Counted from the stretch's first letter, positions 1 to 36,019 are shown. The stretch is 36,019 nt of DNA from a virus (IMGVR_UViG_2537561980_000006), one strand, 5' to 3'. Translations and numbers: made by a program. The notes: generated from the letters alone by a model not told the origin.

Positions 1-901
1 AGCAAAAACGACTTATGGTATTGCGAGCTTCAGTCGCACTACACGGTCGTTCTGTTACTCTTTATGAGAAAGCGTTCCCGCTTTCAGAGCAATGTTCAAA
101 GAAAGCTCATGACCAATTTCTAGCCGACCTTGCGAGCATTCTACCGAGTAACACCACACCGCTCATTGTCAGTGATGCTGGCTTTAAAGTGCCATGGTAT
201 AAATCCGTTGAGAAGCTGGGTTGGTACTGGTTAAGTCGAGTAAGAGGAAAAGTACAATATGCAGACCTAGGAGCGGAAAACTGGAAACCTATCAGCAACT
301 TACATGATATGTCATCTAGTCACTCAAAGCTTTAGGCTATAAGAGGCTGACTAAAAGCAATCCAATCTCATGCCAAATTCTATTGTATAAATCTCGCTCT
401 AAAGGCCGAAAAAATCAGCGCTCGACACGGACTCATTGTCACCACCCGTCACCTAAAATCTACTCAGCGTCGGCAAAGGAGCCATGGGTTCTAGCAACTA
501 ACTTACCTGTTGAAATTCGAACACCCAAACAACTTGTTAATATCTATTCGAAGCGAATGCAGATTGAAGAAACCTTCCGAGACTTGAAAAGTCCTGCCTA
601 CGGACTAGGCCTACGCCATAGCCGAACGAGCAGCTCAGAGCGTTTTGATATCATGCTGCTAATCGCCCTGATGCTTCAACTAACATGTTGGCTTGCGGGC
701 GTTCATGCTCAGAAACAAGGTTGGGACAAGCACTTCCAGGCTAACACAGTCAGAAATCGAAACGTACTCTCAACAGTTCGCTTAGGCATGGAAGTTTTGC
801 GGCATTCTGGCTACACAATAACAAGGGAAGACTTACTCGTGGCTGCAACCCTACTAGCTCAAAATTTATTCACACATGGTTACGCTTTGGGGAAATTATG
901 A
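1..901 (+). pseudogene. tnp: IS10 transposase, C-terminal ~300 codons, reading frame broken near 329-335
   Basis: Frame from nt 3 (..EQKRLMVLRAS..) hits TAG at 333-335; transposase sequence resumes in a different frame from 383 to stop 899-901. Segment lengths fit a 402-codon ORF missing one nucleotide. Confidence 0.75.
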
Positions 902-914
902 GGGGATCTCTCAG
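1..914 (+). mobile_element. IS10 (IS4 family) copy, left part cut by window edge; inside end at 914
   Basis: Transposase C-terminal coding sequence with DDE-type motifs (LIVSDAGF; YSKRMQIEETFRDLK = Y-2-R-3-E-6-K), then 13 nt ending GGGGATCTCTCAG, which matches the IS10 inside end as I remember it. Confidence 0.85.
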
Positions 915-1169
915 GATAAAGCTAGCATGCCAACGGTATACAGCGAGTCGCTCTTTGTGGAGGTGACGATTACCTAACAATCGGTCGATTCGTTTGATGT
1001 TATGTTTTGTTCTCGCTTTGGTTGGCAGGTTACGGCCAAGTTCGGTAAGAGTGAGAGTTTTACAGTCAAGTAATGCGTGGCAAGCCAACGTTAAGCTGTT
1101 GAGTCGTTTTAAGTGTAATTCGGGGCAGAATTGGTAAAGAGAGTCGTGTAAAATATCGAGTTCGCACAT
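915..1169 (-). pseudogene. tnp: IS10 transposase N-terminal fragment (85 codons), truncated at the IS junction
   Basis: ATG at 1169 (minus) encodes MCELDILHDSLYQFCPELHLKRLNSLTLACHALLDCK..WHASFI, then diverges where the other IS copy's end begins. Confidence 0.8.
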
Positions 1170-1230
1170 CTTGTTGTCTGATTATTGATTTTTCGCGAAA
1201 CCATTTGATCATATGACAAGATGTGTATCC
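1162..1230 (+). ncRNA. Predicted RNA-OUT antisense RNA of IS10 (position inferred from IS10 coordinates)
   Basis: Established IS10 biology: pOUT transcript starts ~nt 115 and runs toward the outside end, overlapping the transposase 5' end; mapped onto window coordinates, not independently detected. Confidence 0.4.
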
Positions 1231-1814
1231 ACCTTAACTTAATGATTTTTACCAAAATCATTAGGGGATTCATCAGTGCGGTGCCTGGTGCCTCCAGGTG
1301 ACGTTAACCAGTTAACAATTAACGCCGGATACAGAGAATCCACCCATAACACTGTTTTTGGTTTTAACTGTTCCGCGTGCGCTTAGCCGCATTCACCGCA
1401 TCACAAAATTCACTTTAAAAAGGGCGGCAGAGCAGTCACGGAGTAAAACTGATACCGCCAAACGTCACCAGAAAATTGATAACAGAGGGCGTTGCAGCGG
1501 GGTTGTCACTTAAGCGTATGGTCAACCTGACAACCAGGTGTCCTCAACGGGGAAGGAATAACCCCGCCATACTTACCGCCGCGCCATTTCGCGGAGTGCC
1601 ACAACCGGAAGCGCACGGCCGACGAAAATTTAACGACAGGCTATCTATGAACCAGCTACCTCGCCGTGCGCTTTCGCGTTATGGTCTGACTTTTCATGGA
1701 AATATCCTTTCAGTAAACTGTCAGTGCCGGATGCTCACCCGTGTCCGGCGCACGCACTCCACCTCACCCGTGGAGAACTCCTTAATTACCAACCTTAGCT
1801 TCGTTGGTTAGCTA

Positions 1815-2033
1815 TTAACGCGGGTATGTAATCATTCTGGCAATGCTTAATGCCGCTGCTTTTTCCAGCCTGGTGATATCCTGCTCCAGAGCGGACAGAT
1901 TTTCAGCCTGCTTAGCCCTGGCTTCATTGGCCCATTTCAGATCCTGCGCTGCATTAATTTTCTGGCGCATCCACTCATAAAGTTCATCATCGGTATAATC
2001 TGGCGCGATGATGACGGGTTCTCGTTTCTGCAT
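1815..2033 (-). CDS. Hypothetical small early-left protein (72 aa)
   Basis: ORF with GAGGA RBS upstream of ATG at 2033; co-oriented with the repressor-side leftward operon. Confidence 0.5.
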   Translation of the reverse strand: MQKREPVIIAPDYTDDELYEWMRQKINAAQDLKWANEARAKQAENLSALEQDITRLEKAAALSIARMITYPR

Positions 2034-2062
2034 ACTGATTCCTCGCGGTGTTGCTTCGCTTA

Positions 2063-2191
2063 TCAGCCGTTAGATTTTGCCGAGCTGGAAAGCGCCTGTT
2101 TAAACTCACTGAAGCTGAGAGCTTCTTCGCCTTCGGCAAGGCCTTCGAAGTATTCTTCGTAAGCCTTTTCCATGATTGTGTCGAAATCCAT
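2063..2191 (-). CDS. Hypothetical small acidic protein (42 aa)
   Basis: ATG at 2191 preceded by AGGTGGGTGAT RBS; start overlaps the stop of the upstream gene. Confidence 0.4.
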   Translation of the reverse strand: MDFDTIMEKAYEEYFEGLAEGEEALSFSEFKQALSSSAKSNG

Positions 2192-2192
2192 A

Positions 2193-33939: not shown

Positions 33940-33957
33940 ATTTTCATAACCCATATG

Positions 33958-33985
33958 CGGGCGCCATTTCTGGCGCCTTTTTTAT
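33958..33985 (+). terminator. Intrinsic terminator after J
   Basis: GGCGCC-ATTTCT-GGCGCC then T6. Confidence 0.6.
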
Positions 33986-34007
33986 TGCAGAAAAGCGAGA
34001 GGTAATT

Positions 34008-34607
34008 ATGCGTAAACTTTATGCCGCCATTTTGTCCGCAGCCATCTGTCTGGCCGTATCCGGTGCGCCTGCATGGGCGGCTGAACATCAGTCCACGCTG
34101 AGCGCGGGGTATCTTCATGCCCGGACGAACGTTCCCGGCAGTGATGATCTGAACGGGATTAACGTGAAATACCGTTATGAGTTTACGGACACACTGGGGA
34201 TGGTGACGTCGTTCAGCTATGCAGGAGACAAGAATCGCCAGATTACCCGTTACAGCGATACCCGCTGGCATGAAGATTCCGTTCGTAACCGCTGGTTCAG
34301 CGTAATGGCGGGGCCGTCTGTGCGCGTGAATGAATGGTTCAGCGCGTATGCGATGGCGGGTGTGGCTTACAGCCGTGTGTCGACTTTCTCCGGGGATTAT
34401 CTCCGCGTAACTGACAACAAGGGGAAAAAGCACGATGTGCTGACCGGAAGTGATGACGGTCGCCACAGCAACACGTCTCTGGCGTGGGGAGCTGGCGTGC
34501 AGTTTAACCCGACCGAATCCGTGGCCATTGATGTCGCTTATGAAGGCTCCGGCAGTGGTGACTGGCGCACTGACGGGTTCATCGTGGGTGTTGGTTATAA
34601 ATTCTGA
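34008..34607 (+). CDS. lom: Outer membrane protein Lom (Ail/Lom family)
   Basis: Signal peptide then beta-barrel-like sequence, terminal ..GVGYKF; matches lambda Lom as I recall it. Confidence 0.85.
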
Positions 34608-34633
34608 TTAGCCAGGTAACACAGTGTTATGAC

Positions 34634-34661
34634 AGCCCGCCGGTTCAGGCGGGCTTTTTTG
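34634..34661 (+). terminator. Intrinsic terminator after lom
   Basis: AGCCCGCC-GGTTCA-GGCGGGCT then T6. Confidence 0.6.
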
Positions 34662-34671
34662 TGGGGTGAAT

Positions 34672-36019
34672 ATGGCAGTAAAAATTTCAGGTGTACTGAA
34701 AGACGGTGCAGGTAAACCGGTACAGAACTGCACAATCCAGCTGAAAGCAAAACGTAACAGCACCACGGTGGTGGTGAACACGGTGGCATCTGAAAATCCG
34801 GATGAAGCCGGGCGTTACAGCATGGACGTTGAGTACGGTCAGTACAGCGTTATTCTGTTGGTGGAAGGCTTCCCGCCATCGCATGCCGGGATCATCACCG
34901 TGTATGAAGACTCACAACCGGGTACGCTGAATGATTTTCTCGGTGCCATGACGGAGGATGATGCCCGTCCGGAGGCTCTGCGCCGTTTTGAACTGATGGT
35001 GGAAGAGGTGGCGCGTAACGCGTCCGTGGTGGCACAGAACACGGCAGCCGCGAAGAAGTCAGCCAGTGATGCCAGCACATCAGCCCGTGAGGCGGCAACC
35101 CATGCGACTGATGCTGCAGGCTCAGCACGCGCAGCCAGCACGTCAGCCGGACAGGCCGCGTCGTCGGCTCAGTCAGCGTCTTCCAGCGCAGGAACGGCAT
35201 CAACAAAGGCCAGTGAAGCATCGAAAAGTGCTGCTGCTGCAGAGTCCTCAAAAAGCGCGGCAGCTACCAGTGCCAGTGCCGCGAAAACGTCAGAAACGAA
35301 TGCGGCAGCGTCACAAAAATCTGCAGCCACTTCTGCATCCGCAGCGACCACAAAGGCGTCAGAAGCTGCCACCTCAGCCCGGGATGCGTCGGCCTCAAAA
35401 GAGGCAGCGAAATCATCAGAAACGAACGCATCATCAAGTGCCAGTAGTGCAGCTTCCTCGGCAACGGCGGCAGGAAATTCCGCGAAGGCCGCAAAAACGT
35501 CTGAGACGAATGCAGATAACAGCGCACAGGCGGCAGCAGACTCACAAACTGCATCAGCAAACTCCGCGACAGCAGCCAAAAAATCAGAAACCAACGCGAA
35601 AAATAGCGAGGCAGCAGCAAAGAGCAGCGAAACCAACGCTAAAGCCAGCGAAACTAATGCTAAATCCAGTGAAACAAACGCGGCGAAATCGGCAGCGGAC
35701 GCACTTAATTATCGCAACCAGGCGCAAGGGATTGTAGGCACCAGCATCGGCCTCGGGGCATCACCGCGTGATTGTCCTGATATTTCCGGCAACCCATCAG
35801 GGTATATCGGATTTATGCGCATTATGAGTAATGCAAAAGGCTTTCCATCGATTGCATCCGGTGAAAGCAGTCTTACGGGGTTTATTAGTCAGGTAGATGG
35901 AACACCAGCGTATACAGGTGTATTTCAGGGATGGGCTACGCGCTCGCTTTATACTTATCGCTGGAATCCGACAATAGGCCCGCAGTGGACGCGTCACGCA
36001 AGAAAAGATGAAGTGGACA
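34672..36019 (+). CDS. stf: Side tail fiber protein Stf, N-terminal part (runs off window end)
   Basis: MAVKISGVLKDG.GKPVQNCTIQLKA.RNSTTVVVNTV.. then Ala/Ser/Thr-rich repeats (KTSETNA..); no stop before window end. Confidence 0.8.
   Translation, partial: MAVKISGVLKDGAGKPVQNCTIQLKAKRNSTTVVVNTVASENPDEAGRYSMDVEYGQYSVILLVEGFPPSHAGIITVYEDSQPGTLNDFLGAMTEDDARPEALRRFELMVEEVARNASVVAQNTAAAKKSASDASTSAREAATHATDAAGSARAASTSAGQAASSAQSASSSAGTASTKASEASKSAAAAESSKSAAATSASAAKTSETNAAASQKSAATSASAATTKASEAATSARDASASKEAAKSSETNASSSASSAASSATAAGNSAKAAKTSETNADNSAQAAADSQTASANSATAAKKSETNAKNSEAAAKSSETNAKASETNAKSSETNAAKSAADALNYRNQAQGIVGTSIGLGASPRDCPDISGNPSGYIGFMRIMSNAKGFPSIASGESSLTGFISQVDGTPAYTGVFQGWATRSLYTYRWNPTIGPQWTRHARKDEVD

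Follow-up and report, generated by a model that had tools for sequence, protein, structure and literature searches.

The question raised by this locus is whether the broken reading frames of a prophage in Escherichia coli EPECa12 record the decay of the element or errors in the sequence deposited for it. The stretch analyzed here (the window, 36,019 bp) is the entire contig AKNH01000025.1 of assembly GCA_000268125.1, a draft from 2012. EPECa12 is a wild E.coli strain, and the window is an early draft contig of its genome. It begins with IS10 DNA and continues as a lambdoid prophage that includes the tail-tip gene J and a gene for a protein with a legumain/caspase fold, called here the protease-like gene (Table 1).

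An earlier account of the window made from its letters alone (the sequence-only reading) had listed four single-nucleotide frame disruptions, near position 330 in the IS10 transposase, at a run of nine T and an A tract near 8600 in the protease-like gene, and near 30813 in J. It had left the choice between a decaying cryptic prophage and homopolymer indel errors to raw reads. All four breaks are present at or within a few bases of those positions. The accompanying statement that three of them fall in short homopolymers is loose, since both tracts in the protease-like gene are long, J is affected in a run of just three G, and the IS10 break falls outside any homopolymer. On balance, we favor the view that the A lost in IS10, the six-A tract (A6) and the G lost in J are base-calling or consensus errors, mainly under-calls, and not prophage decay, with the nine-T tract (T9) as a possible exception. 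The technical cause is probable, as judged from comparative data rather than from read pile-ups.

Table 1. Frame disruptions, tract discrepancies and other features of the 36,019-bp window
Feature	Position	Strand	Remarks
T9 tract	8105-8113	+	In-frame state T8; +1 frameshift at codon 59 of 298
A6 tract	8599-8604	+	In-frame state A7; -1 frameshift at codon 224
Break in J	30813-30814	+	GG versus GGG in relatives and best-matching complete-genome copies; -1 frameshift
Tail-tip host-specificity gene J	30545-33939	+	1131 residues when intact; split at codon 90
First part of J	30545-30826	+	93-residue open reading frame (ORF)
Second part of J	30823-33939	+	1038-residue ORF
IS10-Right fragment	1-916	+	~IS10 positions 413-1329; inside end CTCTCAG at 916; transposase residues 104-402
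First 361 nt of IS10-Right	917-1277	-	Outside end at 1277, prophage DNA from 1278
Clan-CD (legumain/caspase-fold) protein gene	7929-8825	+	298 residues when intact; here in three frames through T9 and A6
97-residue gene, intact	7595-7888	+	Directly upstream of the protease-like gene; conserved cassette partner
Intergenic T7	13252-13258	+	After a GC-rich, terminator-like hairpin, between tRNA cluster and holin gene; T8 in all 4 relatives
Intergenic T7	16177-16183	+	Between HNH endonuclease and small terminase genes; T8 in 3 relatives, T7 in ETEC1747
Tail-chaperone G/GT site	24575-24584	+	A_AAA_AAG heptamer 24575-24581, then TAG; ORFs 24198-24584 and 24596-24886
Lambdoid prophage	1278-36019		Gene content taken from near-identical annotated prophages (four complete genomes) and a tRNA scan

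An excess of one-base deletions in an otherwise undecayed prophage

Correcting one base per site gives proteins identical to intact homologues, and there is therefore no decay downstream of the breaks. With its G restored, J encodes 1131 residues with zero amino-acid differences from WP_000515626.1. One base restored in each tract of the protease-like gene yields a 298-residue product with zero amino-acid differences from WP_000058713.1, and restoring the A in IS10 gives a 299-residue product that is an exact suffix of the 402-residue transposase.

The window was compared with four near-identical prophages, from ETEC1747, ETEC4085, CV839-06 and 14EC029. Gene order is colinear with these intact prophages over 34.7 kb, with no indel larger than 1 nt; within that length, 24 substitutions and 6 one-base indels separate the prophage part from its closest relative, ETEC1747. 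Beyond J and the protease-like gene, no other coding break is present relative to the four prophages. Changes private to the window in this comparison consist of three one-base deletions (8598, 13251 and 30813) and two substitutions (9405 and 30870), both of them synonymous. When the IS10 part is included, all four private indels are deletions, and two of the four lie outside hypermutable tracts, in a G3 run and at a single A. In the mutation-accumulation experiments of Lee et al. in 2012, small indels in wild-type E.coli reportedly arose at about 1/10 the rate of substitutions. Under that ratio of ~1:10, the probability of at least four indels among six changes is ~1e-3; the indel:substitution ratio of the window is anomalous.

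Departures from the majority tract length rise steeply with length, affecting three of four 8-mers, one of ~13 7-mers, none of ~45 6-mers and none of 121 5-mers. Real slippage shows the same dependence, which does not discriminate on its own. Two of the four departures are intergenic T7 tracts that the sequence-only reading had omitted (at 13252-13258 and 16177-16183), and coding and non-coding DNA are thus both affected. These intergenic tracts would share a technical origin with the breaks in IS10, the A tract and J. The pattern as a whole has the marks of an artifact, with single-base indels, few substitutions, dependence on length and changes in non-coding DNA too. Independent assemblies lack the J and IS10 deletions, A6 and the T7 at 13252; they do not lack T9. 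We favor error for IS10, A6 and J because these are one-base deletions, near-private, and accompanied by similar intergenic miscounts.

Several of the other assemblies of this prophage carry private one-base indels of their own (CV839-06; ETEC1747, with G5; ETEC4085, with C4), and 14EC029 carries none. Singletons of this kind are commonly technical, and a star of private indels points to assembly noise, not descent. Complete-level RefSeq references evidently contain indel errors as well. In the nominally complete CV839-06 sequence, an 800-bp stretch of the tape-measure gene (L004 ~27100-27860), which is annotated as frameshifted, holds five private one-base deletions, none of them in a homopolymer.

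Decay would be expected to leave further degenerative changes, and lesions inherited by related strains. Neither pattern was found. The broken genes are without amino-acid changes, no module is missing from the visible part and no deletion exceeds 1 nt, and T9 alone among the four coding lesions is shared. The proposal of a decaying cryptic prophage is thus not supported, given the few substitutions relative to ETEC1747, the lack of other coding indels and the 100% identity of the restored products, as well as the structural module, half of the prophage, which is 94-98% identical to several deposited E.coli phage genomes. There is no indication of long-term decay, and the finding is an ordinary one.

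The deletions in J and IS10 are sporadic

A 70-nt query spanning the J site found 7,376 places in 4,155 complete-genome records, none of them with the deletion. In a very large gene collection, the exact 93-residue product of the broken gene is on record for two contigs only, the source contig and a 581-bp European Nucleotide Archive (ENA) metagenome scaffold. A wider search for the exact 93-, 910-, 1038-, 106-, 172- and 99-residue products returned the source contig and three unrelated sequences, namely a metagenome scaffold and two IS10 copies that are frameshifted, and no others. The J and IS10 frameshift products are not reproduced in Logan assemblies of Sequence Read Archive (SRA) runs, which is weak evidence or none, given that both lie in repeated DNA. 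We considered a frameshifted J allele in circulation and rejected it, as neither the window allele nor the metagenome allele has an exact match in complete genomes. The J deletion is a sporadic singleton and not a circulating allele, because it is absent from complete genomes and the deleted metagenome form likewise has no counterpart there. We regard a real loss of this G as improbable.

In IS10, the window reads CTCAAAGCTTTAGG where intact copies read CTCAAAGACTTTAGG, with a single A missing between 329 and 330 (CAAAG[A]CTTT). The loss creates a TAG stop at 333-335. Positions 1-916 are otherwise identical to the intact IS10 of KMi006 and to the Tn10 remnant of NEB Turbo, and the whole IS10 part (1,277 nt) has one private deletion and zero substitutions. 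The deleted form occurs at none of 5,463 places in 1,649 complete E.coli genome records. A genuine deletion here is unlikely, if slightly less so than in J. The break is in any case without functional consequence because the fragment belongs to an already truncated, probable rearranged Tn10 remnant; in the matching NEB Turbo structure, the fragment already lacks the first ~85 codons.

Two tracts of variable length in the protease-like gene

The T tract could be read in 17 sequences, with EPECa12 and its probable read set counted separately, and is T8 in ten, T9 in four and T7 in three. The tract is truly variable, as T7, T8 and T9 all occur in independent assemblies. T9 is carried by the window contig, the Logan assemblies of SRR063724 and ERR5386542, and ETEC4085; T7 is carried by ETEC1731, strain 0-4 and the Logan assembly of SRR094974. 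The distribution of T9 does not track relatedness.

The A tract behaves differently. A6 is limited to the window contig and the Logan assemblies of two early SRA runs, SRR063724 and SRR094974. Among 16 other sequences, 15 have A7 and one (Logan SRR30307702) has A8, and a second, divergent allele of the gene also has an A8 reading frame. The 904-bp Logan contig of SRR094974 has A6, T7 and one single-nucleotide difference from the window, so the two runs that share A6 disagree on the neighboring T tract (T9 versus T7). If both runs were made from one strain, their reads are in conflict at the T tract. If SRR094974 comes from another strain, A6 is confined to two early runs and occurs in no later assembly, which looks like a reproducible under-call.

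Raw reads were seen through the Logan k-mer assemblies only. The second-assembly check that the sequence-only reading had called for gave a divided answer: SRR063724 agrees with the contig on both T9 and A6, and SRR094974 agrees on A6 and disagrees on the T tract. The ends of the Logan contigs were considered as a sign of homopolymer noise and rejected, as their positions do not fit simple de Bruijn branching. The SRR063724 contig (L014) possibly ends in DNA shared with other prophages; this is the case for the hok-proximal end, the only one for which it was demonstrated (window 8873-9000 matches several thousand genomes).

Technical error weighed against real mutation

The run accessions are in the style of 2010-2011 and the whole-genome shotgun accession is in that of 2012, which suggests that the platform may have been pyrosequencing. 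Like errors of 454, Ion Torrent or unpolished long-read data, the breaks are single-base changes, mostly deletions, length-dependent, in coding and non-coding DNA, private, and in read sets that disagree. Unlike such errors, two of the four coding breaks lie outside long tracts, and T9 and A6 are dominant in at least one raw run. Variable tract length in high-throughput data has been noted as potentially artifactual (PMC4746626).

A second comparison is with the cryptic lambdoid prophages of K-12 (Rac, Qin, DLP12 and e14), in which entire modules are gone and substitutions are numerous. The window shares with them early genes of the dicB/ydfABC type, an insertion sequence (IS) element and frameshifted genes. 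It differs in retaining replication, lysis, head and tail modules, and its broken genes are otherwise identical to intact homologues. The pattern is closer to the artificial frameshifts of early flow-based or unpolished assemblies than to K-12 decay.

Several observations weigh against a technical origin. Window 5309-9008 is matched at 100% identity, T9 and A6 included, by the 3,700-bp Logan k-mer contig of SRR063724, and those lengths are therefore the majority state of that run's reads and not an assembler artifact. A6 recurs in the second run. T9 occurs in ETEC4085 and Logan ERR5386542 in an allele that is otherwise identical, and the product expected from a T9 break (208 residues, P0128) is also on record for the second allele. 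The IS10 deletion, lying outside a homopolymer, is atypical of pyrosequencing error. Real loss of the protease-like gene is common in E.coli, because IS1 insertions have knocked it out in two complete genomes (STEC409 and strain 0-4) and five of 12 copies are disrupted. In J, the metagenome scaffold noted above (ENA ERZ28617919; L008 1-581) shows the same change of GGG to GG in a different allele, with ~17 nucleotide differences and an identical 93-residue product. We read this recurrence as a coincidental repeat of an error or mutation at the exact site.

These points bear unequally on the four breaks. T9 may be a genuine slipped-strand allele, since the tract varies between strains and loss of the gene is common; we give its being real an even chance. 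For A6, a real origin is doubtful, somewhat less so than for the deletions in IS10 and J. Homopolymer indel error, one of the two explanations offered by the sequence-only reading, is thus favored for IS10, A6 and J and is left in doubt for T9, which recurs in a truly variable tract. The accompanying view that the sequence could not settle the matter was too pessimistic, in that comparative data shift the odds a good deal.

Among the alternatives, the best supported is that T9 and A6 are genuine slippage events in a gene that is often selected against or neutral, and that the J, IS10 and intergenic miscounts are technical. It is encouraged by the spread of T7, T8 and T9 over independent assemblies and alleles, by the occurrence of A6, A7 and A8 in the A tract, by the disruption of the gene in five of 12 complete genomes (two by IS1), and by run SRR063724, which supports T9 together with A6. 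The J and IS10 deletions are moreover singletons in repeated DNA, the latter near the contig end. This explanation must contend with the confinement of A6 to two early-accession runs that disagree on the T tract, and its absence from all later assemblies. The long-read 'complete' genomes with T7 or T9 have private indels in further homopolymers, which makes their tract lengths doubtful too. We consider this explanation unlikely overall.

A related idea is that the T8 tract, and perhaps the A7 tracts as well, is a true hypermutable on/off switch of a costly cassette that E.coli lineages repeatedly switch off or destroy, in which case T9, and possibly A6, would be real. Like the contingency loci of Neisseria, Haemophilus and Campylobacter, the T tract is a homopolymer early in its ORF (codon 59) that varies by one nucleotide in either direction among close relatives. 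In contrast to such loci, it is only 8 nt of T in the window gene's in-frame form, encoding Phe-Phe-Ser, and is not conserved in homologues outside E.coli (45-sequence alignment); the variation may also be partly technical. Polymorphism among relatives, expected of a phase-variable tract, is therefore seen, and conservation of Phe-Phe-Ser across the family is not. We think a switch of this kind quite unlikely. Were it true, a cassette found in prophages and in genomic or defense islands of Escherichia, Pseudomonas and Burkholderia would be an uncharacterized and costly defense-like or toxin-like module.

It is a little less likely again that all of the breaks are real and very recent in EPECa12, the prophage just starting to turn cryptic with J out, the protease-like gene hit twice and a dead IS10 drifting. 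Beyond the reproduction of T9 and A6 by a separate k-mer assembly of raw run SRR063724, and of A6 in SRR094974, this account can draw on the repeated inactivation of the protease-like gene in nature, IS1 included, on the one other public sequence with the same J deletion, and on the Tn10 remnant inside the prophage, which shows that some real disruption occurred. It would, however, require four private one-base deletions against two substitutions, the improbable spectrum calculated above, with two of the deletions outside hypermutable tracts and no amino-acid change in any broken gene. None of the thousands of copies of J and IS10 shares their deletions, and the failure of Logan assemblies to reproduce the frameshift products counts slightly in the same direction, subject to the repeats already mentioned.

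Programmed recoding, by ribosomal frameshifting or transcriptional slippage on the T9 and A tracts with full-length protein still made, is very improbable: long A/T runs can support transcriptional slippage and the window has one real programmed site (A_AAA_AAG), but in-frame T8, A7 and GGG are the large majority in homologues, where a recoding signal would be conserved in the shifted state, IS10 belongs to the IS4 family with a single-ORF transposase (402 residues intact), and a slippery heptamer is absent from the J site (CTGGTAC). For the four breaks, programmed frameshifting was accordingly rejected. A mismatch-repair mutator was rejected as the main cause, since it would give many transitions per indel outside a run and there are only two private substitutions.

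If the breaks are technical, as we favor for all except T9, the living strain most likely has a functional reading frame in both J and the protease-like cargo gene, the prophage should be counted, on its visible part, as potentially inducible and not cryptic, and pseudogene counts from this and similar early draft assemblies would be inflated. If they are real, a tail gene and a cargo gene have been inactivated very recently, which is still an ordinary event. A prophage with J really broken at codon 90 could not make infectious particles, and one with GGG has a complete tail-tip gene.

The protease-like gene belongs to a conserved two-gene cassette

The lead of wider interest is a conserved, unannotated two-gene cassette with a clan-CD protease-fold protein that is often inactivated in E.coli. 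Its larger product belongs to a family of ~297-residue proteins widespread in Proteobacteria, and H96-G97 and Q132-C133 are invariant across 45 homologues in the family alignment. An AlphaFold2 model of the 298-residue protein has a predicted local distance difference test (pLDDT) score of 92.9. The best Foldseek matches of the model in the PDB are legumains and GPI8 (E 7e-9 to 1e-8) and peptide asparaginyl ligases (E ~1e-8), followed by caspase-7, CED-3 and MALT1 at E 4e-5 to 1e-4, among caspases, a paracaspase and metacaspases. Pfam Peptidase_C13 scores 12.8 bits against the protein, below its cut-off of 22.8 (E 0.088), and some homologues carry a precomputed PF01650 hit. On the predicted structure, the label 'caspase-like' used in the sequence-only reading holds at the level of the fold. 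The T9 break cuts the first 58 residues off from the catalytic core, and A6 removes a C-terminal helical hairpin.

The small upstream proteins (~94-97 residues) are 44-47% identical between E.coli, Pseudomonas and Burkholderia. In the Pseudomonas (L028 3686-4891) and Burkholderia (L032 3679-4894) loci too, the small gene lies directly upstream of the homologous ~297-residue gene. The Pseudomonas cassette adjoins a SIR2_2 gene, and the Burkholderia cassette sits in an island with resolvase and integrase genes. The cassette matched none of 5,027 PADLOC models and has no Pfam assignment; it is a candidate for an uncharacterized defense-like or toxin-like module.

The five disruptions among the 12 complete E.coli genomes are due to different lesions. 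Three are changes of tract length (T9, T7, and A6 in a third tract at 8730-8736), one is an insertion of IS1A, and the last combines T7 with an insertion of IS1B. Further frameshifted forms on record include A8 and one that lacks a G in the codons for VTGHG. This diversity suggests recurrent loss or a hypermutable gene.

The IS10 DNA is a probable rearranged Tn10 remnant

The IS10 DNA is no simple insertion. After its inside end comes an inverted IS10, entered at position 361, from which the sequence runs directly on to position 1, and the outside end abuts the prophage ~30 bp from where dicB starts in the relatives. This would be a rearrangement of an inside end into IS10, of the Tn10 inversion/deletion type. 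Window 1-1277 aligns as a single piece to 3001-4278 of the NEB Turbo locus L006, a rearranged Tn10 remnant inside speA that is annotated there as two partial transposase genes beside a full IS10. Of 5,426 complete genomes, NEB Turbo alone gives such a one-piece match.

The junction at 916/917 and the outside end at 1277 match NEB Turbo exactly. Positions 1-1277 agree with this R(zgb-210::Tn10)TetS-type remnant at every base except the lost A, including the junction at IS10 position 361, and differ in their site, which is upstream of dicB in the prophage here and inside speA in NEB Turbo. The comparison covers the right-hand structure, the only side visible in the contig, which ends before the left part and the 9-bp target duplication are reached. 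A junction shared at different sites may reflect a target hot spot inside IS10 or a rearranged element that moves as a unit.

In KMi006, an intact IS10 of opposite orientation (L005 2087-3417) lies upstream of dicB, no more than ~6 bp from the corresponding prophage site (window 1278-1290), a hint that insertions may favor this spot.

Prophage content and a programmed frameshift in the tail-chaperone genes

The visible part of the prophage is structurally complete, with replication, lysis, head and tail modules all present; its integrase side falls outside the view, as the contig ends inside IS10. The early part comprises genes of the ydfABC type, dicB among them, a cI/cro-like pair, and replication and nin-region genes. 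Next come hokD, RusA, Q and four tRNA genes, and the late part has lysis genes and an HK97-type set of terminase, portal, protease and capsid genes. The tail genes are lambda-like, running from the tape measure through L, K, I, J and Lom to the start of a tail fiber.

One further change of frame, between 24584 and 24596, is the programmed -1 G/GT shift of the tail-chaperone genes and not a disruption, and it is the sole such site in the window. As in other long-tailed phages, the heptamer lies in frame before the stop of G: the gene ends GTT AAA AAA AAG TAG (24573-24584), with a dnaX-like slippery site in the right frame, and the T frame is open downstream. It was not among the breaks reported before.

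ETEC1747 and ETEC4085 (L002 ~26091; L003 ~25558) have A7 in place of A8 at this site, a change that would put G and T into one continuous frame, and the annotation of both lists pseudogenes here. Their A7 reflects an error of assembly or else a variant that makes GT constitutively.

The tRNA cluster (12656-12965) lies 3' of Q and was called by ARAGORN as Met(CAT), Lys(TTT), Thr(TGT) and Gly(TCC). In relatives, the CAT tRNA is a tRNA-Ile in the RefSeq annotation, which implies a lysidine-modified anticodon.

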